DNA of 64,000 nt from Flavobacteriales bacterium (lineage in GTDB: Bacteria; Bacteroidota; Bacteroidia; CAIKAF01), in assembly GCA_052437175.1 (NCBI GenBank), contig JBQVOK010000006.1:75066-139065 (forward strand), in the 5' to 3' direction. The position numbers and the translations under genes were made by a program. How positions within the stretch are numbered: the first letter of the stretch is position 1; each line of letters begins with the position of its first letter. This document shows positions 2,167-24,872 of this stretch, in pieces. The notes under the pieces were generated by a model. The model saw nothing but the letters and a program-made list of their open reading frames with translations, was not told where the DNA came from and did no database searches.

Positions 2167-4698
2167 CTATTGTTTGATGATTTTACGGGTAATTGTCTTA
2201 TCAGCGCTGTACACACGGATGATGTATACGCCGCTTTCAAATCCGTTCAGATCGATCGTTTGTATGGCAGCCGGGTTCTGGTTGCTGTAAACCAGTTGTC
2301 CAACGGCATTGAACACTTCTGTCTTTTCAATTCCGGCAGTTTCAGCCTGTATCACGAACTGCTCGCGGAAAGGATTCGGGTAAATGCTGAAGGTAAAACC
2401 TTCTTCCTCTTCCAGTCCGGCGCAGGCGCTCACGCTCAGGGTTCCGCTTGTGGTATCGGAACAGCCTTCCGGCGAAGTGTAGATATAGGTAATGGTATGT
2501 GAACCGATACCGGCCGCTCCGGGGCTGAAGATACCGGCTGTAACGCCAGCACCGCTATAGGTACCACCGGCAGGAGTACCGCCGCTCAGGGCGAAGGGAC
2601 TGTGATATACGCAGGGAGTGGTAAATGTGCCCAGGGCCGCAGTCGGTTTGGCATTTACGGTAACCTCGATGGAGTCTGTCAGCGGACAGCCCCATGCCTG
2701 GTATACATGTCCCACGATGCTGCTTACGCCCGGTGCCGGGGTAATGGTCTGTACAGCCTGTGTGGGATCGCTGAAGGAAGCAGCAGGCTCCCACAGGTAG
2801 CTCTGGCCGCCTGTAGCTGTAAAGGTAATGGAAGTACCCTCGCACACAGTGGTTGTAGTGCTGCTGATGGTCGGCTGCGGCAGTGCGCCTACATTGATGG
2901 CCTCTACATTATCAAGGATATCGTTTCCGTCGTAACCGCCGATACAGGCCAGGTATACGCTGTCGTTCGCCGTAAAGGCCACGAAGTTGAATACGTTACT
3001 TACGGATGAAGGTTTATCCGGACCACCTTCCCACTGGTTGGTGTTTACGTTGAAGGCAAACGTGGCATTCATTACAAACAGACCCTGACCGTCGGGGTCA
3101 CCGGCCGTAAAGTATACTTTACCGTCGTTCAGCGGAGTAGCGCCGCCGGCCAGACGTCCGGAAGGACCTGCCGGGTAGCTGGGCAGTGCGGTCCAGGTGA
3201 TCTGCGAAGGATTGCTGGTATTGATGGTTCCCAGCCAGGCCTGGTCGCTGGTTTCGGTAACCTGGTTGTAACCGCCTACGAGTACGATCTTATTGCCGGT
3301 AATACCCATGCGGCCACCGCTCACGGCAGTTCCGGCAAAGGCAGTGCCTGTGGTCCAGGTATTGGTATTTACGTTATAGATCTGTACCGTAGTTACATCG
3401 GTAGTACCGTTATAACCGCCCACGATGTACATCAGGCTGTCGGCATAGGACGCAATGGCGTAGTCACCCACAGCCGTAGGCATATTGGCGATGGCCGTCC
3501 ATGTGTTGGTAGCCGGATCATAGGCATGTGCGCTGGTGGTCGGCGAGAAAGAACCTACATAACCGCCCGGTACATATACTTTACCTTTGATGGCAGCTGC
3601 GCCGATCTGCTGTTTGCCGGTAGGCAGGTTGGCGATGGGAGACCATGCGCCGCTTACCACGTTCATTTTGTAGGCATTGGCAATGGTGTTGAAGTTCATG
3701 TCGTTACCGCTGATGTGGTAGATATAGCCGGAATCGGTGGGACTGTTACAGCCTTTCAGGAAGGCTGAGGCAGAAGCCCACATCGGCTGCGGCAGCGGAG
3801 TAAAGGTGTTCCAGCCGTAGTTCTCGAAATCCTGCATTACGGTAATGCTAAACAGCAGGGTATCGTTGCTTGGCACCAGGTCGCCGGTCAGACCGGTATA
3901 GAGTTTGGCCTGGTAAACACCCGGAGTTGCAGGTGTCCAGGGGGTAAAGCTCAGCTGAGTGCTGGTTCCGGCAGCTACGTTGGGAGCACCTACAATAGAT
4001 ACATAACCGCCCTGGATCTCCAGTGTGGCATTGAACGATTGTGGAGTGGGGCCATTGTTGGCCACGGTAGCCTGCGGGGTAAGCGAGGTATTGGCTACGA
4101 TCTGCGCCGGGCCGTCATAGGTAGAGGCCTCGGCATCCAGTGCCGGCAGGGTACCCAGTTGTACACGGTCGATGTACACACCGTCGCCGTCTACATTATA
4201 GTGGCTGAAAGCCACAAAAATGTCCTGACCTACGAATGGTGCCAGGGAAACGGCATAGCGCTGCCATACACCGGCAGTCAGGGGATAGTTTACGCCTTCT
4301 TCCAGCTGCAGCAGCGTAGACGTAAAGGAAGCGAGTGCCGAGTCACCCGTAGATGCACGCACGATGAGTGAATCGGGCGGAAATCCGTCGTATTCCAGCG
4401 TCATGTAGAAAATGAGCGAGTCGCCGCTGGCAACCTGGAACTTGGGGGTGATGAGCCAGTCCTGGCCTCCGGTTGACTGGTATTCCATGTACGCACTGAA
4501 CGAACCGTCATAGGCTTCGTCAGAAGTGCGCTGCCATACGTTGGCGCCCTGAACGCTGGTGGCCTGCCAGCCGGCGGGCGGGAATTGCGTGCCTTCGAAA
4601 CTCTGCTTATAGTAACCCGCTAACTGGGCACCGGCAAGAGAAGGCAAAAGGAAAAGGCATGCTAAAATGCCAAAAGATAGAATAGAACTTTTTTTCAT
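2167..4698 (-). CDS. T9SS-secreted Kelch-repeat protein (type-A Por C-terminal sorting domain)
   Basis: N-terminal signal peptide (MKKSSILSFGILACLFLLPSLAGAQ). Repeated Kelch-like blades (GGY..G, 'KVYV.GGY', 'YIVGGYNG'). C-terminal 'FSIYPNPF...GVYIIRVYSADKTITRKIIKQ' is a T9SS type-A sorting domain. Confidence 0.75.
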   Translation of the reverse strand: MKKSSILSFGILACLFLLPSLAGAQLAGYYKQSFEGTQFPPAGWQATSVQGANVWQRTSDEAYDGSFSAYMEYQSTGGQDWLITPKFQVASGDSLIFYMTLEYDGFPPDSLIVRASTGDSALASFTSTLLQLEEGVNYPLTAGVWQRYAVSLAPFVGQDIFVAFSHYNVDGDGVYIDRVQLGTLPALDAEASTYDGPAQIVANTSLTPQATVANNGPTPQSFNATLEIQGGYVSIVGAPNVAAGTSTQLSFTPWTPATPGVYQAKLYTGLTGDLVPSNDTLLFSITVMQDFENYGWNTFTPLPQPMWASASAFLKGCNSPTDSGYIYHISGNDMNFNTIANAYKMNVVSGAWSPIANLPTGKQQIGAAAIKGKVYVPGGYVGSFSPTTSAHAYDPATNTWTAIANMPTAVGDYAIASYADSLMYIVGGYNGTTDVTTVQIYNVNTNTWTTGTAFAGTAVSGGRMGITGNKIVLVGGYNQVTETSDQAWLGTINTSNPSQITWTALPSYPAGPSGRLAGGATPLNDGKVYFTAGDPDGQGLFVMNATFAFNVNTNQWEGGPDKPSSVSNVFNFVAFTANDSVYLACIGGYDGNDILDNVEAINVGALPQPTISSTTTTVCEGTSITFTATGGQSYLWEPAASFSDPTQAVQTITPAPGVSSIVGHVYQAWGCPLTDSIEVTVNAKPTAALGTFTTPCVYHSPFALSGGTPAGGTYSGAGVTAGIFSPGAAGIGSHTITYIYTSPEGCSDTTSGTLSVSACAGLEEEEGFTFSIYPNPFREQFVIQAETAGIEKTEVFNAVGQLVYSNQNPAAIQTIDLNGFESGVYIIRVYSADKTITRKIIKQ

Positions 4699-4884
4699 AC
4701 CTTAGATAGAATTGTTTGGTTTTATTAATGGTATAAATTATATACAATGTTAATAAATCTTTAATGATACCGAAAGGGCAGAGGCCGTTTATCGGTCTAA
4801 AAAGGTATGTATTTATTTGTAAGTTACTTGTAAGCAGTGTATAAGGTCGTTACTAAAATATCGCTTTTTAGTTTCCGGAAATTT

Positions 4885-4930
4885 AAAAACCGGTATCTGT
4901 CTATAATTTTGGCGGACAAATACCGGTTTT
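4885..4930. terminator. possible bidirectional terminator / large hairpin 3' of the efflux operon
   Basis: Inverted repeat aaaaaccggtat ... ataccggttttc with A-run and T-run flanks. The loop is ~23 nt, so confidence is low. It lies 24 nt after the stop of the membrane fusion protein gene (minus strand). Confidence 0.35.
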
Positions 4931-4953
4931 CGTATATGTATTTATTTTTTGGC

Positions 4954-6087
4954 TCAGTCGGCAGCTGCATTGTGGAGGCTAAGCCAGAGCGTATAGGCAT
5001 TGGTCTTTACCCATTTTCTGCCGGAAAGCGTTGCGGGTAAGATCACCTGTGTATAGGTTTCGTCGCTCAGGCCGGTGTTCACCACGTGTTCCACGAACCG
5101 TCCGCCGCCTTCATCGGTAAAGGCAAAGGCCTTATCGCCGTTGCGTACGATGGCGGCGAGGGGCAGAGCCTGTACCCGGCCGCTCTGTACCTGCACCTTC
5201 CCGTTTATGAACATACCCGGTACCAGTAGCCGGGCGGGGTCATCGGTATGGCAATGTACGGTAAAGCTGCGGTCAGCCCCGATCTGCCGGCCGATACCGA
5301 TAATACTGCCGCTGAAGGTCTGTTCCGGTGCACTGTTCGTAAAGAACTGCACCTGTTGTTTTTCACGCAATAGCGGGAGGTGATTTTCGAACGCCTGCAG
5401 GCTGATGTGCATATCGGCCGGGTCGATCAGTACAAGGAGCTCTGTGCCGGCATCGGTATACATACCTTCGTTGATACGTACTTCGCTGATGTAACCTGCT
5501 ACCGGGGCGGTAATATCTACATAAGGCCTGATGTTTGCGGCCTGCATACCGTTGCTGCGTATGCCCAGCAGGTTCAGCTGCTGTTTCAGGGCCTCGCGGG
5601 AGGCTTTTTCTACCAGCAGCCGGGTTTGCGCGTCCTGCAGCTGTTTTTCGCTGGAGGCGTTATTGCGAGCCATTTCTTCCTGGCGGGAGGCCTCGGCTTC
5701 CAATTGCAGGCACAGTGCCTCGGAACTGAGATAGGCCCGCTGTATTTCGGCGATCTGCATCGACTCCAGGCGGCATAAAAGTTCACCTTTCTGCACTTTT
5801 TGTCCCGGCAGCACCCTGATGTTCTTTACAACGGCCCCTACGGGGAACGAAATGCTGATCTTATGCGACGGCGGGGCTTCCACCATTCCGTTGAGCAATA
5901 CCTCGCTGTTTATGACCACGCTGTCGGCTGTGCCGCTGTTTATGCGGGCATTCTGTACCTGTTGCGGACTGAGTGTAAGTACGCCGGGTTCCTGTTTCTG
6001 CGGCGTGCCGCTGTTGTTTCCGCTGCCGCAACCGGCAATGAAACCTGCACTCAGGCAGGCAATAATTATATGTTTACGGATATTCAT
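4954..6087 (-). CDS. efflux RND transporter periplasmic adaptor (membrane fusion protein, CzcB/CusB/HlyD family)
   Basis: Lipoprotein-type N-terminus (LSAGFIAGC), coiled-coil segment, and beta-barrel/MP domains typical of metal-efflux MFPs. It starts 12 nt downstream of the pump gene in the same orientation. Confidence 0.8.
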   Translation of the reverse strand: MNIRKHIIIACLSAGFIAGCGSGNNSGTPQKQEPGVLTLSPQQVQNARINSGTADSVVINSEVLLNGMVEAPPSHKISISFPVGAVVKNIRVLPGQKVQKGELLCRLESMQIAEIQRAYLSSEALCLQLEAEASRQEEMARNNASSEKQLQDAQTRLLVEKASREALKQQLNLLGIRSNGMQAANIRPYVDITAPVAGYISEVRINEGMYTDAGTELLVLIDPADMHISLQAFENHLPLLREKQQVQFFTNSAPEQTFSGSIIGIGRQIGADRSFTVHCHTDDPARLLVPGMFINGKVQVQSGRVQALPLAAIVRNGDKAFAFTDEGGGRFVEHVVNTGLSDETYTQVILPATLSGRKWVKTNAYTLWLSLHNAAAD

Positions 6088-6098
6088 GGATTCTGTTT

Positions 6099-9000
6099 TT
6101 AGGGATTCAGATAATTGTATTCAATAACGGCTGCATTATACTCCCACAGTAGGTCCAGCCAGGAATCGTATATGCTTAGGCAGTTGCGGTACATCAGGAA
6201 CCATTCGCTGTAACTGATGGCACCGTTCTTCCACTGCGAAAAGGCGATCTTTTCCATCTCTGCGGCGGCAGGCATCAGTTCATTCCGGTAAGTGTCCATA
6301 CTGGCCCGCAGGCGATCGGTACGGCGGGCCGCTGTGCTGTACCGGGCGTTGAACTCGGCCTGCACCGAGCGGTTCAGCGCCTGCACACCCTGGTAACGGA
6401 AGCGGGCGGCGCGGGCCTCCTGTATGGCAGCGCCGCTGAACAGGGGCAGTGCCAGGCCGGCCACAAAAGTGCCAAAGCGTTTTCGTCCGTCAAAGTATAC
6501 TTCGTTACCGTCCGGGTTCTGGTACCCGATAATGGTCATGTTGTTGTAGCCGAGCAGGATATCCGGCAGTACTTTGGACTTACGTACACGCCACTGGTAC
6601 AGGGCCGAATTTTCGAGTGCTGAAGCTTTCAGCAGCAGGGGATGTGTGCCTGCTCTGCTTTGATGAAGAGGCGCCAGCATACTGTCGGTCGCGGGGATGA
6701 AATAGGTGTCTGTCTGCAGGAGGCTGTTGAACAGCTGCAGGGTAAGGTCCGAGTCGTTGCGCAGGTTCAGCAGTTCCTGGCGTACCAGTAGCTGTTCGTT
6801 CTGTGCGCTTTTTTCTTCCCAGAGGCCGGTTTCGCCTGTACGTGCGCGGGTCTGTGCGGCGGCGCTGAAAACCTGCAGCAGGCTGTCTTTCTGGCGTGCC
6901 CGGGCTATTTTCTGCTGTATCCAGAGGTATTTCCAGAAGTGCAGCGAAAGTTCTCTTTCCTTTTCTCGGCGGCTGAGGGCATTATCGGCATAGGCGCCCT
7001 GTTGTTCGCTTTTCAGCAGGCGGCTTTGTGCAGTGTATACCGTAGGGAATTCGAGGCTCTGCTGTAGCTGAAACCCATTGTCCACGGCCGCACTGTTGAT
7101 GTTTCCGTAGGAAAAATTGAACTGTGTCTTAGGCAGGTTCCAGCCGGTACCCCTGCGGGCGGCTATACCCTGCTGTTCCAGGTCCAGTGCACGAAAGCGA
7201 TGACTGCTGTCCTGCATGATACGCAGTGCCTCGTGGTAATGTACCGGCACCTGCGCGGCCGCATAGCCCGTAATACCAAACAGGAGCAGCACCAGGGCCG
7301 CTTTGGGAGACGCTGCTTTGCGCAGCAGGAACAATACCGGTAGCACCAGCAGGGTAAGCAGGGTAGAACTGATGAGTCCGCCGATGACCACGGTGGCCAG
7401 CGGGCGTTGTACTTCGGCCCCGGCGCCGTTGCTGAGGGCCATGGGCAGAAAGCCGAGTGAAGCTACCGTGGCGGTAAGCAGCACGGGACGCAGACGGTTG
7501 ATACAGGCCTGCATTACGATGGCGCTCATGGCCTCATCTCGTCTTTCGGCACGGAGTTTATTGATCTCCGATACCAGTACCACACCGTTGAGCACGGCTA
7601 CCCCGAACAGGGCAATGAAACCGATGCCCGCCGAAATGCTGAATGGCATTCCCCGCAGCCAGAGTGCGGCAATACCACCGATGGAACTGAGCGGGATGGC
7701 CGAATAGACCCGCAGACTTTGTGCTGCCGACCCGAAGGCAAAGAACAACAGCACAAAAATGAGACCCAGTGCCACGGGCAGGGCAATGCTGAGGCGGGCC
7801 GAGGCTTCCTGCAGGTTTTCGAAAGAGCCGCCATAGCGGATGTAATACCCGGAGGGCAGTGCCAGGGAAGCGGCCTGTGCCTGTATGTCTTTTACCACGC
7901 TCTGTACGTCGCGGTCTTTTACATTGAACCCGATAATGATACGCCGCTGTGTGTTTTCGCGCTGTACCTGGTTGTAACCGCTTATTTCGCGGATATCGGC
8001 CAGCATTTCCAGCGGTACTACACTGCCGGAGGCGGTCTGTACGGGCAGCTGCCGCAGGCTTGCCGCCGAATTGCGTATGTCCGGAGGCAGACGAAGTACA
8101 ATATCGTAGCTTTTTTCCCCTTCGTAGATCTGGCCGGCCTTCGTTCCGGAAAAAGCGGCTTCCACGGCGCGGTTCAGTTCGGATACCTGTACCCCGTAGG
8201 CCGCCAGGGCTGCATAGTTGTACCGGATCAGGGTCTGCGGCATACCGCTTACCGATTCTACATAGATATCCGCAGCGCCTTCTGTGTTTTCAATGATACT
8301 GCGCAGGTGGTCTGCGTACTTTACCAGGCTGTCCAGGTCTTCGCCGAATATTTTACACACCACGTCCTGTTTGGCGCCGGTAAGCAGCTCGTTAAAACGC
8401 ATCTGCACCGGGAACTGGAAGCTGAACGTAGCTCCCGGGTTCAGCGAAAGCGCGCGGTTCATGGTATCGGCCAGTGCGGCAAAACTGTGTGCCGTGGTCC
8501 ATTCTTTCTTATCCTTCAGTACCACGATCATATCGGCAATTTCGAGCGGCAGGGGATCGGTAGGGATCTCACTGCTGCCGATCTTGGTGACTACTTTTTC
8601 TACTTCGGGGAATTTCAGCAGTACCTGGGATGCTTTTGAAGTATGTTCCTGGGTGGTATGCAGGCTGGCTCCGGGCAGCAGACGGGTCTCCACGGCAAAA
8701 TCGCCTTCTTCGAGCTGGGGAATAAATTCTCCGCCGATAAAGAACAGCGAAGCGGCTGCCGGGATAAAGAGCAGCAGGGCCAGGCTCAGTACCATTTTTT
8801 TATGCCGGATGGCCTTTGTGAGGATACGGCTGTATTTTTCCTGCAGGAAATGTTCCCAGCGGTCGGCGAAGTTCTTACGTCCGGGGGCGGGTATCTTCAG
8901 CAGCCAGGCGCTCATCATGGGCACATAGGTAAGCGAAAGCATGAAGGCGCCCACCAGTGCAAAGGACACGGTCTGTGCCATGGGTCTGAACATTTTGCCT

Positions 9001-10397
9001 TCTACGCCCTGCAGCGAAAATATGGGCAGGTATACCACCAGGATGATGAGCTGACCAAAAATGGCCGCCCGCAGCATTTTGCCGGCAATATCCGCGGTAA
9101 GGGCGTCTTTGTCCACCGTTTCGTTCCGGTGCTGCATAAAATAGAACAGGATGGCCTCTACAATGATCACGGCCCCGTCGATCAGCAGACCGAAGTCGAG
9201 GGCGCCCAGGCTCATCAGGTTGCCGCTGACGCCGAACAGATTCATGAGCCCGATGGCAAAGAGCATGGCTAGCGGAATTACGGAAGCCACAATAAAGGCC
9301 GCCCGCAGGTCGCCCAGGAACAGGAAGAGCACCAGCAATACAATGGCGGCCCCTTCGAGCAGGTTGGTCTTTACGGTGCTGATGGCATGATCCACCATTT
9401 TGCTGCGGTCCAGGAAGGGCTCAATGACCACACCTTCGGGCAGCATTTTCTGTATGTCTTTTACTTTGTCTTTTACGCGTGCGATGACGGCGGAAGAATT
9501 TTCGCCGCGCAGCATCATTACCACGGCTCCGGAAACATTACAATCGCCGTTGTAGCAGAGCGCTCCGTAGGGAATGGCATGTCCTTCGCCCACCACGGCC
9601 ACGTCCTTTACCTTCACCGGCAGTCCGTTCTCGGTATGCCGCAGTACGGTGTTCTCGATATCGCTTTTGGTCTGCATAAGACCTTCACTGCGGATATAGG
9701 AGAGGGTAGGCCCGGTTTCGATGTAGGAGCCGCCGGCATTTTCGTTATTGGCGTTGAGCACGGCGGCAATTTCACTGGCGGTTACCTTATAGGCCTTCAT
9801 CTGTGCGGGCTGCAGCTGTACTTCGTATTCTTTCAGCAATCCGCCGAACGAACTTACATCGGCAATGCCTTTTACGGAAAGTAACTGGCGGCGTACCACC
9901 CAGTCCTGTATGGAGCGTAACTGTGCGGGCGAATAACGGCCTTCGTAGCCGTCTTTACAGCGCACTACGTACTGGTAAATTTCGCCCAGTCCGGAGGATA
10001 CCGGCCCCAGCCGCGGCACGCCCAGTCCGGGTGGAATGCTGGCCTGTACCTGTACCAGGCGTTCGGAAAGCTGCTGGCGCGCCCAGTAAATATCGGTACC
10101 TTCTTCAAAGACCACGGTCACCACCGAAAGTCCGAAGCGGGAAAAACTGCGTACCTGTTTTACGCGCGGGGCGTTGCTGCAGGCCAGTTCTACGGGAAAG
10201 GTAATGAGGCGCTCCACATCGGTAGCGCCCAGCGAGGGCGATACGGTAAGTATCTGCACCTGGTCGTCGGTAATATCGGGAACCGCGTCCACCGGCAGGC
10301 GGCGCAGTTCAAAAATGCCCCAGACCAGCAGGGCCAGGGTGCCTAAGGCCACAATGAGCTTATTGTGTACCGAAAAGGCAGCTATTTTATAAATCAT
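6099..10397 (-). CDS. CusA/CzcA-family heavy-metal efflux RND permease fused in frame to a TolC/CzcC-like outer-membrane factor (1432 aa)
   Basis: The N-terminal ~1020 aa are a 12-TM HME-RND pump ('MIYKIAAFSVHNKLIVALGTLALL', 'ITFPVE', large periplasmic loops). After the last TM comes 'RKAASPKAALVLLLFGITGYAAAQ', then ~390 aa with the outer-membrane efflux protein repeat architecture ('HYHEALRIMQ...', two OEP coiled-coil/beta repeats). The reverse-complement DNA across 7261-7340 has no stop and no frameshift. Confidence 0.8.
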   Translation of the reverse strand: MIYKIAAFSVHNKLIVALGTLALLVWGIFELRRLPVDAVPDITDDQVQILTVSPSLGATDVERLITFPVELACSNAPRVKQVRSFSRFGLSVVTVVFEEGTDIYWARQQLSERLVQVQASIPPGLGVPRLGPVSSGLGEIYQYVVRCKDGYEGRYSPAQLRSIQDWVVRRQLLSVKGIADVSSFGGLLKEYEVQLQPAQMKAYKVTASEIAAVLNANNENAGGSYIETGPTLSYIRSEGLMQTKSDIENTVLRHTENGLPVKVKDVAVVGEGHAIPYGALCYNGDCNVSGAVVMMLRGENSSAVIARVKDKVKDIQKMLPEGVVIEPFLDRSKMVDHAISTVKTNLLEGAAIVLLVLFLFLGDLRAAFIVASVIPLAMLFAIGLMNLFGVSGNLMSLGALDFGLLIDGAVIIVEAILFYFMQHRNETVDKDALTADIAGKMLRAAIFGQLIILVVYLPIFSLQGVEGKMFRPMAQTVSFALVGAFMLSLTYVPMMSAWLLKIPAPGRKNFADRWEHFLQEKYSRILTKAIRHKKMVLSLALLLFIPAAASLFFIGGEFIPQLEEGDFAVETRLLPGASLHTTQEHTSKASQVLLKFPEVEKVVTKIGSSEIPTDPLPLEIADMIVVLKDKKEWTTAHSFAALADTMNRALSLNPGATFSFQFPVQMRFNELLTGAKQDVVCKIFGEDLDSLVKYADHLRSIIENTEGAADIYVESVSGMPQTLIRYNYAALAAYGVQVSELNRAVEAAFSGTKAGQIYEGEKSYDIVLRLPPDIRNSAASLRQLPVQTASGSVVPLEMLADIREISGYNQVQRENTQRRIIIGFNVKDRDVQSVVKDIQAQAASLALPSGYYIRYGGSFENLQEASARLSIALPVALGLIFVLLFFAFGSAAQSLRVYSAIPLSSIGGIAALWLRGMPFSISAGIGFIALFGVAVLNGVVLVSEINKLRAERRDEAMSAIVMQACINRLRPVLLTATVASLGFLPMALSNGAGAEVQRPLATVVIGGLISSTLLTLLVLPVLFLLRKAASPKAALVLLLFGITGYAAAQVPVHYHEALRIMQDSSHRFRALDLEQQGIAARRGTGWNLPKTQFNFSYGNINSAAVDNGFQLQQSLEFPTVYTAQSRLLKSEQQGAYADNALSRREKERELSLHFWKYLWIQQKIARARQKDSLLQVFSAAAQTRARTGETGLWEEKSAQNEQLLVRQELLNLRNDSDLTLQLFNSLLQTDTYFIPATDSMLAPLHQSRAGTHPLLLKASALENSALYQWRVRKSKVLPDILLGYNNMTIIGYQNPDGNEVYFDGRKRFGTFVAGLALPLFSGAAIQEARAARFRYQGVQALNRSVQAEFNARYSTAARRTDRLRASMDTYRNELMPAAAEMEKIAFSQWKNGAISYSEWFLMYRNCLSIYDSWLDLLWEYNAAVIEYNYLNP

Positions 10398-10467: not shown

Positions 10468-10845
10468 TTATGCTTTGGGAGGGTGGAAGATCGGGGCCGG
10501 ACTGGTAAAACTAAAACGTTCGAGGTAGGGAATGTGTGTCACGTGTAGCAGGTGCTGCGTACATTCGGGGGCCTTAAACGCGCCCGCGGGCAGGAACACC
10601 AGCTTCAGCAGTACGGAATGTTCCAGGCTTTTAAAGGGGAGCTGGGCATCTTTCTGGTAATCGTTATCGGCATCTCCGCTCTCCTGGTAGTGCATTTCCA
10701 GGAAACGACCCATGTCTAAGGACGGGTCCTGCTGCCTGTGTTCGGAATAATGCACGAAAAGCAGGGGTACCTGCAATACCTCACCCAGCGGCGAAAAGGC
10801 CACCAGGAACAGGATAAGTCCTATGAAGGCAAAACGGCTTTTCAT
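10468..10845 (-). CDS. hypothetical small exported/membrane-anchored protein, His/Asp/Glu-rich, encoded immediately 5' of the RND pump
   Basis: 125 aa with a hydrophobic N-terminus (FAFIGLILFLVAF) and His-containing motifs (HYSEHRQQD, EMHYQESGDADNDYQKD, HLLHVTHIPY). It is 70 nt upstream of the czcA-like gene in the same orientation. I recognise no homolog. Confidence 0.4.
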   Translation of the reverse strand: MKSRFAFIGLILFLVAFSPLGEVLQVPLLFVHYSEHRQQDPSLDMGRFLEMHYQESGDADNDYQKDAQLPFKSLEHSVLLKLVFLPAGAFKAPECTQHLLHVTHIPYLERFSFTSPAPIFHPPKA

Positions 10846-10932
10846 ACAGAATTCGGTACAAAGGTAGACTATTTACAGATGCAAAATGTTAGGAAAACAC
10901 AAACTTTCTTACGACACTTTCGTATAAATAAT

Positions 10933-10957: not shown

Positions 10958-13900
10958 ATGAGGAGAATTCTCCCCTTACTCGCGTTTCTATCCCTCTTTG
11001 TAATGAGCGCCCTGGCCCATGACGGACACCCTGCGTACCCTTTTATTCAGAATAAGGGACAGTGGGTCGCGCCCGTATTGTACAAGGCCGACCTGCCGGG
11101 CGGAAATATGTGGATCGAACCACAGGGCATCAGTTACGGCTTTTTTGACCATGCCAAACTGGCGGCCATCCACGATCATTTCGAAGGCCACGAAGGGCTT
11201 GCACGTACCCCCGAAATACGTGCTCATGCGCTGCGCATACGCCTGCTGGGTTCCGATCCCCTGGCCGAATACACACAGGAACACGCTTCGGTAAGTTACA
11301 ACAACTACTTTTTGGGTACAGATCCCTCGCGCTGGGCTACGGACGTATATGCCTACGGCGAAGTGCGCGGTAAAAATATTTATCCCGGCATCGACGTGCT
11401 GTATAAGCAGGACGAGGGTTTCCTGAAATACGAATTTGTAGTGGCCCCGGGGGCCGATCCCGCCCGGATAGCCATGCAGTACCAGGGCCAGGAACAGATG
11501 TACATTGATGAACTGGGCAACCTGAACGTAAAAACCTCGCTGAACCTGGTAAAGGAAATGCGGCCTTTTATCTACCAGCTGCGCAACGGTGATACGCTGG
11601 CGGTGCCCGGCCGTTTTGAGCTGCGGGAGAACATTGTACGCTTTGTGCTGGATGCCGCATACGATAAGAACCTGCCCCTGGTGATCGACCCGGTGCTGAT
11701 CTTCAGTACCTATTCGGGCTCCACAGCCGATAATTTCGGGTTTACGGCCACTTACGACAGCAAAGGCTACCTCTATTCCGGCGGTAACGTGTTTGCCCTG
11801 GGCTACCCGACCACGCCCGGCGCTTACCAGGTAACTTACGGCGGTGGAAATATAGACGTGGCCATCACCAAATACGATATTACGGGTACTTTCCTTATTT
11901 TTTCCACCTACCTGGGCGGCAACGGTTCGGAAATACCGCACAGCCTGGTGGTGAACAACTACGATGAACTTTTTGTGTTCGGCACTACGGGATCGAACAA
12001 TTTCCCCACGTCGTCCAATGCGTTCGACAAGACCTTTAACGGGGGCACCAGCGTTACAGGGACCGGCATGGGTTTTGTATACCCCTCGGGCTGCGATATT
12101 TTTGTAACGCGCTTTAACCAGACCGGAACGGGCCTGCTGGCTTCCACCTACCTGGGGGGCACCGGTAACGACGGGCTGAACCTGGCCGGCGGCCTCAAGC
12201 ACAATTATGCCGATGATGCCCGCGGAGAGATCGACATCGATAACTCGAACTACATCTACCTGGCCACCACCACGTCTTCCTCTAATTTCCCCGGCACTTC
12301 CGGCGGGTTCCAGTCTTCGTACGGGGGCGGTACACAGGACGGTATCGTGATCAAGATGGACAACGGGCTCACCAGCCTGCTCTGGTCTTCGTACATCGGG
12401 GGCTCAGGCGCAGATGCCATTTATTCCCTGGCCCTGAGCAACAACAACATTATCATTGCCGGCGGTACCAATTCGGCCAATTTCCCGGCCAACGGCGCGG
12501 CTTTCAATACGCCTTCGGGTGGTGTGGACGGTTTTGTGGCGCGCATCAACGCTACGGGCAGCACACTGATAAAAGCATCGCTGTACGGCACTTCTCAGTA
12601 CGACCAGATCTACTTTGTAGAAGCCGATAAGAACGACCATATCTTTGTGCTGGGGCAGACGGACCACAGCGCGGGATTCTATTTCAACAACGCCATTTAC
12701 GGCAACCCGGCGGGGAACCAGTTCATCACCAAATTCAAGCCCGGGCTTGACCAGGTGGAGTGGAGCACGGCCTTTGGCAACGGCAACGGGCACCCGGATA
12801 TCTCGCCCTCGGCCTTCCTGGTTGACGTGTGTAACAAAATTTACATCTCCGGCTGGGGCGGAACCGTGAACGGCGGATTTATTCCCGGCAGCACGGTAAG
12901 CGGGCTGGACATTACGCCCGGCGCCTACCAGAGCAGCACTACCGGCAGCGATTTTTACCTGATGGTGATGGAGGACAATGCCTCTTCGCTTACGTATTCT
13001 ACGTTCTTTGGCGGACCTACCTCGGCCGAACACGTGGACGGCGGTACCAGCCGTTTTAACCGTAAGGGCGAAATTTACCAGAGCGTATGTGCAGGTTGCG
13101 GAGCGCACAGCGACTTCCCGATATTCCCGTCCAATGCCTGGAGTCCTACGAACAACAGCCTCAACTGCAACAACGGGGTATTTAAGTTCAAGTTCGATTT
13201 CCCGATGACCGTGGCCGATTTCGATATTCCGCCTTCGGGCTGCGCACCGGTGAACATGAGTTTTGTAAACCTGAGCGAGGGTGCTACCTCGTACCAGTGG
13301 AGTGTTTCGGACGGACAAACCTCTACGGCGGCCAATCCTACCTTTACGTTTAGCAATTCCGGCGTATACCAGGTAACCCTTTATGCCCTGAACGGCAGCG
13401 GAACCACCTGCAACCCGGTAGACAGCATTACCAAACAGGTGGTGGTACTGGGTAACAATGCCCAGGACCTGCCCACTATGGCCACCTGCGAAAGTACGCC
13501 CTTCGAGATCGGTATGCCGCCTTCCGGAGTAGGCGGGGTCACCTACCAGTGGCTGCCTTCCACCGGTCTTTCAGACCCTACGGTGAGCAATCCTATTTTT
13601 AATCCTTCGGCCGGAACGCAGACCTATCAGCTGATCATTGCCAACAGCGCCTGCTCCGATACCATTGCACAGACCGTGACCGTAGACCCGCTGCAGAACA
13701 TACAGTTCAGCGATACGCTGGTATGCGAAGGCACCGTGGTGAACATAGGCAGCAATAACCTGCCGCCGGCGTATACCTATCAATGGATACCCCCCACGGG
13801 GCTCAGCAACCCGAATATGGCCAACCCCACCTACACGGCGGTGGCTCCGGCTTCCTTTAAACTGGTGTACACCTACCTTACCTGCAGCGATACGGCCCAG

Positions 13901-14914
13901 CGCAATATAGCTGTACTTACGCCGGATGCTTTTAGTATGAACGATACGTCCATCTGCTCCGGGGATACGATACAGATACATGAAATTCCGGCCTTCCCGG
14001 GAGTTACATATCAGTGGTTCCCTTCGGCTCAGGTCAGCGACGATACCCTGGCCGATCCGCAGGTTTGGGCCGATACCACCACGCTTTTTACCTGTGTTAT
14101 TTCCAACGGCATTTGCCTGGATACGGTAAGCAAACTGGTAAATATTTTTGCCATATCTGCCGTTGCGGGCGACGATACCGTTATCTGCAAGGGCGATACG
14201 GTGGGCATCGGCTTTCCGCCCCAGAACGGTTACGTATACAGCTGGACGCCTTCTTCCAGCCTGAGCAACGACAGCATTTCCAATCCGCTGGCTTTTCCGC
14301 TGAGCAACACGACCTACGTACTTTCGGTAAGCCTGCAGAACGGAGGGCAATGCGCTGCCTACGATACGGTGAACATAAACATCAAGGATTTCGGCATTCC
14401 GCCCTATGGTTTTACCAGCGGGCCATCCTGCTACGGCCTTATCGTTACGCCCGACCTGGTGGGAAATCCCGCGTACCAGTATTACTGGAACGTACAGCCG
14501 GGCGGGATTTACGACGGACAGAACCCCAGCTTCCTGATCCCGTATAAAGACACGGCCTATATTTCACTGGTGGTTTCAGACGGTATCTGTAAGGACAGTG
14601 TTACCGTTGCACAGACGATCGGGGCCTTCGGCGATTATTACGACAATAACAAAGTGCCCAATGTATTTACCCCGAACGAAGACGGCATGAACGAATGTTT
14701 TGGTCCGGGTAACCTGGATCCGTCCTGCTACCGCTTATATGTATACAACCGCTGGGGCCAGCTGTATTTCGACTCCGAGAAAGCCGGTGCCGAATGCTGG
14801 AACGGTCGTTCCATGAACAAGGGCGAAATAGCTTCGGAAGGCGTATATTACTGGATACTGGAAATAGCGCTGGACGAATACCATGGTACCGTTCACCTGT
14901 TCACAAAGAAATAA
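10958..14914 (+). CDS. T9SS type-B cargo protein (gliding-motility-associated C-terminal domain) with SBBP beta-propeller repeats and tandem ~77-aa Cys-containing repeats
   Basis: Signal peptide MRRILPLLAFLSLFVMSALA. SBBP-like repeats ('YLGGNGSE', 'YLGGTGND', 'YIGGSGAD'). Four tandem repeats containing 'Y.W.P..GLS....NP' and 'C.GDT'. C-terminal 'VFTPNEDGMNECF...YVYNRWGQLYF' matches the T9SS type-B CTD (TIGR04131-like). Confidence 0.8.
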   Translation: MRRILPLLAFLSLFVMSALAHDGHPAYPFIQNKGQWVAPVLYKADLPGGNMWIEPQGISYGFFDHAKLAAIHDHFEGHEGLARTPEIRAHALRIRLLGSDPLAEYTQEHASVSYNNYFLGTDPSRWATDVYAYGEVRGKNIYPGIDVLYKQDEGFLKYEFVVAPGADPARIAMQYQGQEQMYIDELGNLNVKTSLNLVKEMRPFIYQLRNGDTLAVPGRFELRENIVRFVLDAAYDKNLPLVIDPVLIFSTYSGSTADNFGFTATYDSKGYLYSGGNVFALGYPTTPGAYQVTYGGGNIDVAITKYDITGTFLIFSTYLGGNGSEIPHSLVVNNYDELFVFGTTGSNNFPTSSNAFDKTFNGGTSVTGTGMGFVYPSGCDIFVTRFNQTGTGLLASTYLGGTGNDGLNLAGGLKHNYADDARGEIDIDNSNYIYLATTTSSSNFPGTSGGFQSSYGGGTQDGIVIKMDNGLTSLLWSSYIGGSGADAIYSLALSNNNIIIAGGTNSANFPANGAAFNTPSGGVDGFVARINATGSTLIKASLYGTSQYDQIYFVEADKNDHIFVLGQTDHSAGFYFNNAIYGNPAGNQFITKFKPGLDQVEWSTAFGNGNGHPDISPSAFLVDVCNKIYISGWGGTVNGGFIPGSTVSGLDITPGAYQSSTTGSDFYLMVMEDNASSLTYSTFFGGPTSAEHVDGGTSRFNRKGEIYQSVCAGCGAHSDFPIFPSNAWSPTNNSLNCNNGVFKFKFDFPMTVADFDIPPSGCAPVNMSFVNLSEGATSYQWSVSDGQTSTAANPTFTFSNSGVYQVTLYALNGSGTTCNPVDSITKQVVVLGNNAQDLPTMATCESTPFEIGMPPSGVGGVTYQWLPSTGLSDPTVSNPIFNPSAGTQTYQLIIANSACSDTIAQTVTVDPLQNIQFSDTLVCEGTVVNIGSNNLPPAYTYQWIPPTGLSNPNMANPTYTAVAPASFKLVYTYLTCSDTAQRNIAVLTPDAFSMNDTSICSGDTIQIHEIPAFPGVTYQWFPSAQVSDDTLADPQVWADTTTLFTCVISNGICLDTVSKLVNIFAISAVAGDDTVICKGDTVGIGFPPQNGYVYSWTPSSSLSNDSISNPLAFPLSNTTYVLSVSLQNGGQCAAYDTVNINIKDFGIPPYGFTSGPSCYGLIVTPDLVGNPAYQYYWNVQPGGIYDGQNPSFLIPYKDTAYISLVVSDGICKDSVTVAQTIGAFGDYYDNNKVPNVFTPNEDGMNECFGPGNLDPSCYRLYVYNRWGQLYFDSEKAGAECWNGRSMNKGEIASEGVYYWILEIALDEYHGTVHLFTKK
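13540..14400 (+). repeat. four tandem ~230-bp (~77-aa) coding repeats inside the T9SS type-B gene
   Basis: Repeat units start near 13542, 13771, 14008 and 14232. Each encodes 'TYQW(L/I/F)P..GLS....NP' followed by a 'C.GDT(V/I).IG' segment. They are protein-level repeats with a diverged DNA sequence. Confidence 0.6.
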
Positions 14915-15021: not shown

Positions 15022-16374
15022 CTATAACTTTATAAAACGTGCGGTAAATGTTTTCTTTTGCGTACCGGCTTTAAGGATATACGTACCGCGTGCCAGTGAT
15101 TGTACCGGTATTCCGCCGCCGTTGTAGGCATTGATCTGCAGTACGGTCTTGCCTGTGATATCCATGATCTGCACCTGCTGCAGTGTTTGGCCCTCAGCTT
15201 TCAGGTTCAGTACATCGCTTACCGGGTTGGGCCATAAAGAAAGACCCGCCTGCGCACTTTCTTCGTTCAGTCCGGCATATTCCACCACACAGTACGAAAT
15301 GGTTCCCTGGAAATTACGGGGCAGGTTGTTGGGGGTAAAGGCCGCATCGGCACCGGTACCGGTTTTGATCTGTATCAGTGTATCGTTATAAATAACATCG
15401 CCGGCCGTGGTGCCATTGTTGTAGCTTATAAATCCCACGTTGCGGAACACAATATGGAAGGCCTGGGTGCTATTGGAGGGGATGACCACCGACATACTGT
15501 CCAGTACGGCTTCGGGTGCATTGGGAATGGGAAAGCTGATGAAGGCAGAATCCACCAGGGTCCAGGCGGCGGGAGTGGTCTCACTGCCTGCATAGGTTCC
15601 GGGGCGTGTATATACGCGCAGCATGTCACCGGAAGGCAGGTCCATATCGGCAAAGATGTTCTCGATGCGGATGTCTTTCGATTTGGCCGTAACATCAAAG
15701 AAGATACCATAATTGCTGTTATCATCGCCAAAGGTGGTCATAGCGCTGTCGCAGGCAAGTTCGGTCTGCTGGCAGTAGTGAATTTTACCGGCAAAGTTGC
15801 GGGGAGTGAATACAGTACCAAAAATACTGTTGAGACCCACACCCTCATAGAAGATGAGATCGTTGTTCTGCGAGTAAATGGCGCCTTCGGTGGTGCCGTT
15901 CAGGTAATCCACATCCACCGTGCTTGTACCTACAATATAGTAAGACATTTCCGCACCCGCTGAAAGAAAGTTCCCGGCATATACGGGGATAAACACATCC
16001 TGGCCGGTCTGCGGAGTTACAAAGGCACTGTCGATCAGGGTCCAGGCAGCAGGGAATGTTTCTGAACCGCTGTAACTGCCATTTTTGCGGTAAATGCGCA
16101 CATAACCCGAACTTCCGGCCAGCCGGGCGGAAAAGCCGGATATCACCAGGTTGGTTTTGGCCCGGAGGCGGAACATAACGCCGTCGTTCCCGTTATCGGT
16201 TGTGGCGGCCGCTGTTAAAGAATAGCCGCAGTGTTCGCCATAGCTGAGTGCTTTTTCAGGAAAAGGGGAGGCGCTAAGGGTACTTTGCGGATGTAAGGGA
16301 GCATCCTGGGTTTGTGCCATCATGCCCGTCAGGGACAGGGACACTGCAGAGACAAAAAGTAAAAACTGTTTCAT
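15022..16374 (-). CDS. T9SS type-A cargo protein with an internally duplicated ~190-aa domain
   Basis: Signal peptide MKQFLLFVSAVSLSLTGMMAQ. Two homologous segments ('RIYRKNGSYSGSETFPAAWTLIDSAF' and 'RVYTRPGTYAGSETTPAAWTLVDSAF'). C-terminal 'LWPNPVSDVLNL...GTYILKAGTQKKTFTARFIKL' is a Por secretion tail. Confidence 0.75.
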   Translation of the reverse strand: MKQFLLFVSAVSLSLTGMMAQTQDAPLHPQSTLSASPFPEKALSYGEHCGYSLTAAATTDNGNDGVMFRLRAKTNLVISGFSARLAGSSGYVRIYRKNGSYSGSETFPAAWTLIDSAFVTPQTGQDVFIPVYAGNFLSAGAEMSYYIVGTSTVDVDYLNGTTEGAIYSQNNDLIFYEGVGLNSIFGTVFTPRNFAGKIHYCQQTELACDSAMTTFGDDNSNYGIFFDVTAKSKDIRIENIFADMDLPSGDMLRVYTRPGTYAGSETTPAAWTLVDSAFISFPIPNAPEAVLDSMSVVIPSNSTQAFHIVFRNVGFISYNNGTTAGDVIYNDTLIQIKTGTGADAAFTPNNLPRNFQGTISYCVVEYAGLNEESAQAGLSLWPNPVSDVLNLKAEGQTLQQVQIMDITGKTVLQINAYNGGGIPVQSLARGTYILKAGTQKKTFTARFIKL

Positions 16375-20724: not shown

Positions 20725-22671
20725 ATGAAACTCAAGTACTCTTTACTGATTGCCGGCGTGGCAGGTATACTCGGCAGTGCCTCGGCACAAACGAGCGACC
20801 CTGTGCTGATGCGTGTCGGGAACGACAACGTAACGCTGTCTGAATTTGAAATGATCTACAAGAAAAATCTGCAGAAAGATCAGAAAATTACGCAGGAATC
20901 TCTGGACGAGTATATCAAGCTCTTCACCAATTTTAAACTGAAAGTACAGGCGGCCAAAGATGCCGGTATCGATACCGGACGTGCCTTTGTAACGGAATAT
21001 TCCGGCTACAGACGTCAGCTGGCCCAGCCTTACCTGAAAGATAAAGCTGCCGAGGAAAAACTGGCGCGTATTTATGCCGAGCGTGCAGCTAAGGATGTAC
21101 GTGTGAGCCATATTCTCATTAAAAGCAAAAACGAATGCGATACGGCTGCCGCGGCTAAAAAAGCACAGGAACTTACGGCCAAACTGAAAAAAGGCCTCAA
21201 ATGGGAAGACGCCGTAGCGCAGTATTCCGAGGACGAATTCAGCAAAGCAGCCGGCGGCGACCTGGGATGGTTCACATCCGGCATGTGGGCCTATGCCTTC
21301 GAAAATGCGGCTTACGGACTGAAAAACAACGAAATTTCAGCCCCGGTAAGAACATCGTACGGTTATCACATTATCCGCAAGACCGATGAGCGTGCCGCCC
21401 GCGGCGAAGTAAAAGTGGCCCATATTTTTGCGGCAGCTCCTGAAAAAGATGCCGAAGCCGTGGCCAAAGCCAAAACAAAGATCAGCGAAGCCTACGATAA
21501 ACTGAATGCCGGCACAGCCTGGACCGAAGTACTGATGGCCTACAGCGAAGACCGCAATTCCATGAGCCAGGGCGGCGAGCTGCCTGCTTTTGGTATCGGA
21601 CAGATGGTACCTGCGTTCGAGGATGCCGCTTACGGACTGAAAACCGTGGGGGAATATTCCAAACCCATCCAAACCAAATTCGGCTGGCATATCCTGCGCC
21701 TTTCCGAAAAGAAAACGGCTCCCGCCTATGACCAGGATGCCGACGGATACCTGAAAAAAGTACAGAAAAGCGCCCAGCTTACCCGCATCCTGAACGATAA
21801 TTTCACAGCCCGCATCAAACCGGAAGTAGCCTTCAGCGAAAACGAGAAATTCTGGAGCGATCTGCTCAAATCCATCGGAACGGGTAATGTACGCGTATCC
21901 CGCCTCGATAGCATTGCCGATGCACCGCTCTTCAGCATCGGGGGCGTACAGGTTATGTATAAGGATTTTGCCGATTACTTTAAGCCGCGTGTGCCCCGCA
22001 ACGGCGATATCAACTACTGCAGCCTGCGCGAAAAATACTACATGCCCTATGTACAGCAGAAAGTGGGCGAAGCCTACGAATCGAAGCTGGAGAGCAAATT
22101 CCCGGAATACCGCAGCCTGATGAAAGAATTTAAGGAAGGTATGATGCAGTTTGAACTGATGAAGCAGAACGTATGGGATAAATCGGTGGAAGACACCGCC
22201 GGTCTGCGTACCTACTTTAACCAGCACCGCAGTGAATACATGTGGGGCCCGCGTAACGAAGCCATTCAGTTCACCTCGGCCGACAGCAATGCCCTGGCCG
22301 CCCTGCTGCCTTCCCTGGATAAACTGGCTGCCGGTAAGACCAGCGTAGACAAACTGCTGAAAAAAGTAAACAAAAAAGAAACGGTGATCACTACCTCGGT
22401 GGTACTGGAAGAAAAGACCGACAACGAAGGTCTTATCGCCACGCACATCAAGTCGGGACAGGTATCGCCGGTGTTCCGTTCCAAAGAGAACCAGAACGTA
22501 CTGGTACTTACCACGGAGCGTGCTCCCGAGCCGAAAGACCTGAAAGACGTAAAAGGTGCCGTGATTTCCAAATACCAGGAATACCTGGAGAACGAATGGA
22601 TCAATGTGCTGAAGGCCCGTTATCCCGTTCAGGTAGACAATAAAGTACTGTATAAGCTTATAACCCGTTAA
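20725..22671 (+). CDS. peptidylprolyl isomerase, parvulin type, two rotamase domains (SurA/PpiD-like periplasmic chaperone)
   Basis: Signal peptide. Two PpiC domains ('VRVSHILIKS...GGDLGWF...YGYHIIRK' and 'VKVAHIFAAA...GGELPAF...FGWHILRL'). Confidence 0.85.
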   Translation: MKLKYSLLIAGVAGILGSASAQTSDPVLMRVGNDNVTLSEFEMIYKKNLQKDQKITQESLDEYIKLFTNFKLKVQAAKDAGIDTGRAFVTEYSGYRRQLAQPYLKDKAAEEKLARIYAERAAKDVRVSHILIKSKNECDTAAAAKKAQELTAKLKKGLKWEDAVAQYSEDEFSKAAGGDLGWFTSGMWAYAFENAAYGLKNNEISAPVRTSYGYHIIRKTDERAARGEVKVAHIFAAAPEKDAEAVAKAKTKISEAYDKLNAGTAWTEVLMAYSEDRNSMSQGGELPAFGIGQMVPAFEDAAYGLKTVGEYSKPIQTKFGWHILRLSEKKTAPAYDQDADGYLKKVQKSAQLTRILNDNFTARIKPEVAFSENEKFWSDLLKSIGTGNVRVSRLDSIADAPLFSIGGVQVMYKDFADYFKPRVPRNGDINYCSLREKYYMPYVQQKVGEAYESKLESKFPEYRSLMKEFKEGMMQFELMKQNVWDKSVEDTAGLRTYFNQHRSEYMWGPRNEAIQFTSADSNALAALLPSLDKLAAGKTSVDKLLKKVNKKETVITTSVVLEEKTDNEGLIATHIKSGQVSPVFRSKENQNVLVLTTERAPEPKDLKDVKGAVISKYQEYLENEWINVLKARYPVQVDNKVLYKLITR

Positions 22672-23528: not shown

Positions 23529-24872
23529 ATGAAAAAACTTTTTGTAATACTGGGATTCCTGTGTGGCATATCACTTCATGCACAGATCGTGATCGATGAA
23601 GTGGTGGGCGTGGTCGGTGCCGAACCCATCCTGCTGAGCGAAGTGGAAGAACAGGCCCAGAACGACTTTATGGAAGGACAGGCAGGCGCACGTGATTTTA
23701 AAACGAAATGCGGCCTGTTCGAACGTCTGCTGTTTGAAAAAATGCTGCTGAACCAGGCCGAAAAAGACTCCCTGGTGGTTAGCGATGACCAGGTGGAAAC
23801 CGAGATGGACCGCCGTATGCAGTACTTTATTATCCAGGCCGGCGGTGAAAAACAGCTGGAGGATTTCCTGGGACAGACCATCCCCGAGATCAAGAAAAAC
23901 TTCCGCGATAACATCCGCAAACAGCTGCTGGTACAACAGATGCAGCAAAAAGTGATCGAACGTGTAAAAGTGACCCCGGCCGAAGTAAAGGCCTATTTCA
24001 ACCAAATCCCGAAAGACAGTCTGCCCCTGGTGGCCTCTGAAATAGAATACGCGCAGATCACCATTCTGCCCAAACCTTCGGACGAAGCCCGTGCTGCGGC
24101 ACGCCGCCATGCCCAGAAGATACGGGAAGACATCGGCAAGGGCAGTTCGTTCTGTCTCAAAGCCCGCCTCGAAAGCGAAGACATCGCTTCGGCACAGAAC
24201 TGCGGCGAGCTGGGTTTCCTGCGCCGCGAAGACCTGGTGCCCGAGTTCTCGGCCGCCGCCTTCCGCCTCAAAAATTCCACCGAAATATCCGAAGTGGTAG
24301 AGACCGAATTCGGTTTCCACATTATACAGCTGATCGAAAAACGCGGCGAAATGGCCAATTTCAGGCATATACTCATACGTGCAAAAGTAAGCGACGAAGC
24401 GCTGGACATGGCCGCCAAACAGCTCGACAGTATTTCCCTCGTACTCGAAAAAGACAGCCTGGCCTTTGCCAAACTGGCCGAAAAATATTCCAGCGATATG
24501 GAAACCCGCTTCAACGGCGGTAAAGTAGTGAACCAGCGGGCCGGCAGCAGTAAATTCAAAGACGATGAGCTGGACCCCTATGCCCGTATCGAGATCATGC
24601 CGCTGCAGCCCGGACAGGTAAGCCGTCCGCACGTATACCAGATGCAGACCGGCCAGACCGCTTTCCGTATTGTTAAACTGCTTAGCCGTTCGGCACCGCA
24701 CGTAGCCGATCTGAAAAACGACTTCCCGGTGATCGAACAGGCCGCCCTGGCCAATAAACAGGCCGATGCCGTTGCCAAATGGATCGAAAAAAAACAGGGA
24801 GAAGTGTATATTCGCATCGGAGATATCTATGCCGGATGCCCTTTTGACAATAACTGGAAACAGGAAAAATAA
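23529..24872 (+). CDS. peptidylprolyl isomerase (SurA-like, one parvulin domain)
   Basis: Signal peptide; PpiC domain 'FRHILIRAKV ... FGFHIIQLIEKRGE'. The ATG follows the upstream stop directly (TAGATG). Confidence 0.8.
   Translation: MKKLFVILGFLCGISLHAQIVIDEVVGVVGAEPILLSEVEEQAQNDFMEGQAGARDFKTKCGLFERLLFEKMLLNQAEKDSLVVSDDQVETEMDRRMQYFIIQAGGEKQLEDFLGQTIPEIKKNFRDNIRKQLLVQQMQQKVIERVKVTPAEVKAYFNQIPKDSLPLVASEIEYAQITILPKPSDEARAAARRHAQKIREDIGKGSSFCLKARLESEDIASAQNCGELGFLRREDLVPEFSAAAFRLKNSTEISEVVETEFGFHIIQLIEKRGEMANFRHILIRAKVSDEALDMAAKQLDSISLVLEKDSLAFAKLAEKYSSDMETRFNGGKVVNQRAGSSKFKDDELDPYARIEIMPLQPGQVSRPHVYQMQTGQTAFRIVKLLSRSAPHVADLKNDFPVIEQAALANKQADAVAKWIEKKQGEVYIRIGDIYAGCPFDNNWKQEK

Follow-up and report, generated by a model that had tools for sequence, protein, structure and literature searches.

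A fused permease and outer-membrane factor gene

The locus described here lies in a 64,000-nucleotide (nt) stretch of contig JBQVOK010000006.1 (positions 75,066 to 139,065, forward strand) from an assembled Flavobacteriales bacterium. The whole stretch is referred to as the window, and the coordinates of its features are counted from its first letter. On its minus strand, a single open reading frame (ORF) encodes a heavy-metal efflux (HME) permease of the resistance-nodulation-division (RND) type, which is followed in the same polypeptide by an outer-membrane factor (OMF). The ORF is divided as follows (aa, amino acids; TM, transmembrane helix).

6099 to 10397, minus strand: precursor ORF with an ATG start, 1432 aa, 157.9 kDa, comprising the permease, a putative internal signal peptide, and the OMF
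7323 to 10397, minus strand: HME-RND permease domain, residues 1 to 1025, 12 TM (ACR_tran, TIGR00914)
7254 to 7322, minus strand: putative internal signal peptide or 13th TM, residues 1026 to 1048 (RKAASPK, AALVLLLFGITGY, AAA)
6102 to 7253, minus strand: predicted mature OMF, residues 1049 to 1432, 384 aa, 44.2 kDa

The Pfam domain ACR_tran was found on residues 5 to 1025 (model positions 1 to 1019 of 1021; E value, 1.8e-267), and the NCBIfam model TIGR00914 (CusA/CzcA) scored 1106.8 bits over residues 1 to 1025 against a cutoff of 701.45. The Pfam domain OEP was found on residues 1252 to 1430 (E value, 2.4e-14; 54 bits; cutoff, 22). The junction, ...FLLRKAASPKAALVLLLFGITGYAAAQVPVHYHEAL..., is present as quoted in an earlier note made from the letters of the window, and it reads ...LPVLFLL-RKAASPK-AALVLLLFGITGY-AAA-QVPVHYHEALRIMQ... 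in the protein. That note had described the junction DNA as cleanly in frame, and the reading is indeed unbroken and continuous up to and through the codon of Q1049 (nt 7253 to 7251).

In the RND half, hydropathy peaks occur at residues ~13 to 31, 352 to 370, 376 to 397, 402 to 420, 444 to 462, 477 to 495, 536 to 554, 869 to 887, 924 to 942, 971 to 989, and 1007 to 1025, with one further helix, in the region of residues 890 to 920, falling below the threshold used. Two large periplasmic loops are formed by residues 32 to 351 and 555 to 868. The nearest solved structures, ZneA (4k0e; 657 bits) and CusA (612 bits), are collinear with this half from end to end, and the alignments of every solved RND structure stop at fusion residue 1025 to 1032; the RND part is therefore present in full, its cytoplasmic C-terminus included. 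The motif in TM4 is DFGLLIDGAVIIVEA in the fusion and DFGIIVDGAIVVMEN in ZneA, the final N of the motif being an A in the fusion. In Nies's classification, the TM4 proton-relay motif DFG-x3-DGA-x3-VEN reportedly marks the HME pumps of divalent cations. The methionine triad of CusA (M573, M623, and M672) aligns with E, I, and E, which rules out a CusA-type Cu(I)/Ag(I) pump (HME4). The pump is probably of the divalent-cation (Zn/Co/Cd) type, as suggested by its closer relation to ZneA than to CusA, its ZneA-like TM4, and the E/I/E triad.

The OMF half gave no match to solved structures in a sequence search and was compared by its fold instead. Residues 950 to 1432 were modeled with AlphaFold2 (AF2) from a 65-sequence alignment, with a mean predicted local distance difference test (pLDDT) score of 89; the pLDDT is 60 to 67 over residues 1020 to 1049 and then ~95 from residue 1050, and a helix is modeled at residues 1032 to 1042. 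The order of elements in the modeled OMF is a short strand, two short helices, a strand pair, and helices of 70 and 36 residues, after which the pattern repeats. The model thus has four beta strands and two long helical hairpins, both repeats, and the equatorial segment of a TolC/CusC-type protomer. Foldseek matched it to SilC, OprJ, OprN, CusC, TolC, VceC, CmeC, MtrE, and OprM with a probability of 1.0 over ~408 columns, and the TM scores for SilC, OprJ, OprN, CusC, TolC, and OprM were 0.63 to 0.78. Canonical OMFs (PF02321; TC 1.B.17) contain two OEP repeats; only the second is recognized here by Pfam, the first going undetected. The OMF half of this subclade is divergent in sequence, because Pfam finds the second repeat only and solved structures are unmatched by sequence, and it is predicted by the model to be structurally whole.

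A protein identical to the fusion is already present in NCBI (P0265, 'MAG: CusA/CzcA family heavy metal efflux RND transporter [Flavobacteriales bacterium]'). When one genome per species was scanned with this single protein as the query, the only close relative found was contig JACVCJ010000049 of an independent metagenome-assembled genome (MAG; 'Bacteroidia bacterium'). It carries a collinear 1432-aa ORF, 92.4% identical in nucleotides and 95.9% in amino acids, with zero indels. Synonymous and nonsynonymous codon differences between the two number 186 and 29 in the RND part, 8 and 5 in the junction, and 51 and 25 in the OMF, and the AAA/Q site (the slash marks the predicted cut) is kept. Both halves are under purifying selection. 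The relatives with 82% and 57% identity have lengths of 1432 and 1431 aa, and the best 120 full-length matches are all 1431 to 1478 aa. These come from Chitinophaga, Pontibacter, Mucilaginibacter, Niabella, Pedobacter, Filimonas, Flexibacter, and Saprospiraceae, among others, and many are from cultured organisms. On closed plasmids of Haliscomenobacter hydrossis DSM 1100 (WP_013768944; 1451 aa), Spirosoma (Spirosoma oryzicola WP_232563951; 1453 aa), Hymenobacter, and Adhaeribacter, the fusion is one annotated coding sequence followed by the gene for the periplasmic adaptor, or membrane fusion protein (MFP). In addition, 39 plasmid records span at least 80% of a query that crosses the junction.

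The proposal of the earlier note, that an HME-RND permease and an OMF are fused in a single ORF without a frameshift or lost stop, is upheld by the indel-free ORF of the independent MAG and by fusion in 120 of the 120 best full-length matches, which also demonstrate that fusions of ~1400 aa recur in many Bacteroidota genera. An assembly error is excluded, since the independent MAG has the same ORF, free of indels and with mostly synonymous differences. Many Bacteroidota have this fusion as the standard form of the pump, and the window locus is an ordinary member. It is abundant in public databases and is not new there, its RefSeq name being only 'CusA/CzcA family heavy metal efflux RND transporter.'

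The junction as a probable internal signal peptide

The predicted signal peptidase I (SPase I) cut falls between A1048 (nt 7256 to 7254) and Q1049. Upstream of it, the junction has a basic n-region (R1026, K1027 ... K1032) with a net charge of +3, a hydrophobic core of ~10 to 13 residues (AALVLLLFGI) with a maximum 12-residue hydropathy of 2.4, and a c-region with Gly at positions -8 and -5 and Ala at -3, -2, and -1, followed by Gln. The length of the core fits a signal peptide and is predicted to be shorter than a stable membrane span. No lipobox-like motif is present at the window junction, and one was found at only 2 of 118 homolog junctions.

The site is conserved in two alignments. The first was built from the C-terminal 483 residues as the query and 120 homologs that are 30 to 37% identical over that region. 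Its -1 column (A1048) holds Ala in 108, Ser in 7, and Gly in 5 of the 121 sequences, so that a small residue of these three kinds is present in 120 of 121, and its +1 column (Q1049) holds Gln in 119 of 121. The -3 column is occupied by A, V, S, L, I, T, or G, and the residues between are variable but hydrophobic. In the second alignment, consisting of the window protein and the 119 other full-length fusions from the best-120 list, Ala is found at -1 in 110 of 120 and Gln at +1 in 115 of 120. The conservation summary identifies Q1049 as the sole nearly invariant column from TM12 to the OMF core. Across the homologs, the linker from TM12 to this Gln is 21 to 40 residues long and has a mean net charge of +2.9.

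This pattern is that of the Q-rule of Bacteroidetes, under which SPase I substrates expose Gln at +1, in 71% of cases on average (PMC5837995), and glutaminyl cyclase turns the exposed N-terminal Gln into pyroglutamate (PMC5837995; PMC10653852). With the Q-rule taken into account, AAA/Q weighs considerably more as evidence than an AxA motif of the generic kind. The window contains seven other ORFs with a predicted SPase I-type signal peptide, as follows.

2167 to 4698, minus strand: protein with Kelch repeats, CARDB, and Por_Secre_tail
10958 to 14914, plus strand: protein with DUF7948, PKD, and CHU_C
15022 to 16374, minus strand: protein with Por_Secre_tail only
20725 to 22671, plus strand: ORF with an SPase I-type signal peptide
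23529 to 24872, plus strand: ORF with an SPase I-type signal peptide
31535 to 32272, plus strand: ORF with an SPase I-type signal peptide
34145 to 35086, minus strand: ORF with an SPase I-type signal peptide

Six of these seven signal peptides end in A/Q, the exception being ALA/H in the DUF7948 protein. The organism thus appears to follow the Q-rule, and its own export signals resemble the fusion junction.

Stand-alone relatives of the OMF carry a similar site. The mature OMF domain was searched against 1.8 billion cluster representatives, and 144 matches were classified; these 50%-identity representatives were used only for stand-alone relatives, as full-length fusions are hidden inside the clusters. 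Stand-alone size (380 to 470 aa, mostly ~405 to 425) and a Met start were found in 85 of the 144 matches. Among these 85 proteins, 76 have a hydrophobic N-terminus and in 73 the position that corresponds to the junction is occupied by [AGS]Q, after which the sequence continues as in the fusion, x-x-h-x-L-x-x-A-h. For a stand-alone 'OM efflux protein' of Tannerella forsythia (Tanf_07615), a pyroglutamate N-terminus has been verified by mass spectrometry at ...FCAMA/QEVLTLDQCR (PMC5837995, supplement). The mature N-terminus of this protein reads A/Q-x-x-h-x-L and then enters a helix, which is the same layout as AAA/QVPVHYHEAL of the fusion. In stand-alone Bacteroidota OMFs such as Tanf_07615, the signal peptide stands at the true N-terminus, whereas that of the fusion is internal, after 1025 polytopic residues.

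A split form of the locus is found on plasmid NZ_CP053910 of Hymenobacter sp. BRD128 (2729 to 8389), where unfused RND, OMF, and MFP genes follow one another in that order. The czcA product is 1071 aa long and has its own stop, and it is followed, with a 37-nt out-of-frame overlap, by a 'TolC family protein' of 407 aa, which begins MQTTGLVLLLALSSWLLPTRSYG/QTQP and whose signal peptide ends SYG/Q. The gene order is that of the fusion locus, and the two OMFs fall in one clade; the RND gene with its own stop and the OMF with its own Met are features that the fusion lacks. The BRD128 locus adjoins mer genes and a Tn3 transposase. The fused and split states lie one indel or frameshift apart, and the fusion linker is the OMF's own signal peptide, because the split and stand-alone OMFs carry it at their aligned N-termini. 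The earlier note had read the linker as a retained signal peptide; its n-h-c anatomy, the sequence A-A-A/Q, and its position-for-position alignment with the signal peptides of stand-alone and split-gene OMFs all agree with this. The junction is therefore homologous to bona fide N-terminal signal peptides.

Proposed processing of the precursor and its alternatives

It is quite likely that the ORF encodes a natural polyprotein precursor of the pump and the channel, two components of a tripartite RND efflux system for divalent metals, and that this precursor is cleaved between A1048 and Q1049. In this model, the ribosome would make one 158-kDa chain, whose 12 RND helices would enter the inner membrane and leave the chain end in the cytoplasm. 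Next, residues 1026 to 1048 would serve as an internal Sec signal peptide, inserted as an N-in/C-out 13th helix, and SecYEG and SecA would export the 384-residue OMF domain. Cleavage by SPase I after A1048 would free the 44.2-kDa OMF, and its new N-terminal Gln would be cyclized to pyroglutamate, as in most exported Bacteroidota proteins. The pump, of 113.7 kDa, would retain the signal peptide as a C-terminal 13th helix, while the OMF would reach the outer membrane, trimerize, and dock via the lipoprotein adaptor encoded downstream. The pump:channel stoichiometry of tripartite RND pumps is 3:3, and the equimolar synthesis of pump and channel that the fusion would ensure fits this ratio. Translocation, cleavage, cyclization, assembly, and metal specificity are the steps of this model that we infer.

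Several points weigh against the model. The precomputed Pfam annotation of the closest relatives (P0265 to P0267) lists PF00873 only, without OEP. The cut site was assigned from motif rules and conservation, and the metal specificity is deduced from motifs only. No study of a fused homolog, proteomic or biochemical, was found in the open-access literature searched. In principle, the conservation of A/Q could also stem from repeated recent fusions instead of selection, an origin that is disfavored because the homologs are only 30 to 37% identical.

The fusion could instead function uncleaved, with the junction serving as a permanent 13th TM anchor and the tethered OMF working, for example, as an extension into the periplasm or as a channel of a non-canonical type. 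The helix at residues 1032 to 1042 in the AF2 model would suit such an anchor, fused RND-superfamily proteins such as SecDF exist, and cleavage is so far a step that we infer. However, a core of ~10 to 13 residues is too short for a stable span, a plain anchor offers no rationale for a nearly invariant small residue at -1 and Gln at +1, and the split and stand-alone relatives are ordinary secreted OMFs. A complete beta-barrel/alpha-barrel protomer, moreover, requires the outer membrane, and the OMF fold starts one residue past the site, with no linker that could span the periplasm. The N-terminus of a TolC-type protein lies near the equatorial region, approximately halfway up the periplasmic barrel, and in assembled pumps such as AcrAB-TolC the tip of the barrel sits far above the inner membrane, supported there by the adaptor hairpins and the RND headpiece. 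Given this geometry and the zero-length tether that follows from a modeled fold starting at residue 1050, an uncleaved chain would therefore not be expected to assemble. A functional uncleaved fusion is thus considered improbable.

Independent translation of the OMF is very improbable. By this explanation, an internal start in the junction would yield an OMF precursor, and the read-through fusion would be a by-product. A Met occurs in the n-region of 36 of 118 fused homologs, the split Hymenobacter OMF begins at such a Met, and residues 1018, 1022, and 1036 of the window ORF are encoded by GTG or TTG. However, 82 of the 118 homologs have no n-region Met and the window protein lacks an ATG in that region, initiation at V1036 would delete the n-region, and starts at residues 1018 and 1022 would fall within TM12. 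In addition, the RND part has no stop, so each ribosome that translates the pump also makes the OMF; since every pump chain therefore carries an OMF, internal initiation cannot remove the need for processing.

The chance that a sequencing or assembly indel, or a recent stop loss, merged two adjacent genes into an artifact or pseudogene is negligible: a split version with a 37-nt overlap does exist and a single indel could interconvert the two forms, but the independent assembly has no indel and differs mainly at synonymous sites, the relatives at 82% and 57% identity have practically the same length, and the best 120 matches are all fusions, closed genomes and plasmids included.

If the proposed precursor is cleaved as described, 1:1 synthesis of pump and channel would be hard-wired, and the channel might be released where its pump inserts. 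Tripartite efflux pumps are textbook three-gene systems, and the matching of pump and channel is usually discussed for Proteobacteria only. A large, conserved family of pump-channel precursors would be a natural experiment on stoichiometry and assembly and a clear example of a bacterial polytopic protein with a Sec signal peptide in its interior. Proteins of 1430 to 1480 aa that are named only 'CusA/CzcA' hide their OMF from name-based surveys of metal resistance and TolC-like proteins in Bacteroidota. Since both the names and the precomputed domains omit the OMF, surveys that rely on them undercount OMF/TolC-like components. In the open-access literature searched, no description or test of a natural RND-OMF fusion or of its processing was found, and in the accessible part of a large 2021 review of tripartite pumps, the fusions named are SecDF and MacB only. 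A broader proposition is that, in much of the phylum Bacteroidota, HME pumps are routinely made as polyproteins and split by SPase I at an internal Q-rule signal peptide, by an apparently undescribed route of biogenesis; on this we are almost evenly divided, with a slight lean toward doubt.

Neighboring genes and known systems

The fusion ORF lies in an apparent operon, whose other elements are as follows.

10859 to 10866, minus strand: candidate promoter TACCTTTG, 13 nt upstream of the ATG of the small ORF, a sequence match only
10468 to 10845, minus strand: small ORF, 125 aa, with a hydrophobic N-terminus and rich in His, 70 nt upstream of the fusion and first gene of the apparent operon
4954 to 6087, minus strand: periplasmic adaptor (MFP), 377 aa, with a lipoprotein-type N-terminus (...FIAG/C), 11 nt downstream of the fusion ORF

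The MFP matches HlyD_D23 (E value, 1.9e-27) and TIGR01730 (118 bits; cutoff, 94.9). The order of small ORF, pump-OMF, and MFP that was pointed out in the earlier note is kept in relatives. The small ORF gave no match in Pfam and NCBIfam. In five loci, the fused pump gene is immediately preceded by a small ORF of 125 to 140 aa, the counterparts of the window ORF being at 2706 to 3083 in L001, 4582 to 4959 in L004, 2634 to 3032 in L003, and 2644 to 3066 in L002. These proteins are His rich or Cys/His rich and have in common the motifs PLGEV.KVP.LF.H..EH, QLPFK, and FLPA and a C-terminal IFHPPK or QPPQ. The small ORF may be an unrecognized fourth component of the operon, for example, a metal sensor or chaperone. 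The candidate promoter TACCTTTG fits the -7 promoter consensus of Bacteroidetes, TAnnTTTG. A scan of the operon for sigma-70 promoters and terminators found nothing above shuffled expectation and none at the junction.

On its flanks, the efflux operon has genes for three large secreted proteins, each with a C-terminal sorting domain of the type IX secretion system; these are the first three of the seven signal peptide-bearing ORFs listed above. A DUF7948 gene is also the divergent neighbor of the operon in L004, the relative at 57% identity. The type IX cargo neighbors (Por_Secre_tail and CHU_C) agree with a Bacteroidota origin.

A precursor of comparable layout is the cytochrome b-c1 precursor FbcH of Bradyrhizobium japonicum, in which an internal signal peptide comes after a polytopic protein and the exported partner is set free by leader peptidase. 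FbcH is unrelated to the RND-OMF fusion, and its released part stays at the inner membrane and is not an outer-membrane beta-barrel. The CzcCBA and ZneCAB systems of Cupriavidus metallidurans (Transporter Classification, TC 2.A.6.1) consist of the same RND, OMF, and MFP parts, and the TM4 motif DFG-x3-DGA-x3-VE is common to ZneA and the fusion. In Cupriavidus, however, the parts are encoded by three separate genes in the order C-B-A, whereas the window has one RND-OMF ORF and the order (small ORF)-A/C-B. Genes for CzcRS and CzcD were not found adjoining the window locus. The CusCFBA system of Escherichia coli belongs to the same HME-RND family, and the OMF fold of the fusion resembles those of CusC and SilC. 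CusC is a lipoprotein, whereas the fusion junction is an SPase I-type site without a lipobox. CusA also differs from the fusion in TM4, which is ZneA-like in the fusion, and in its Met triad, which is replaced there by E/I/E.

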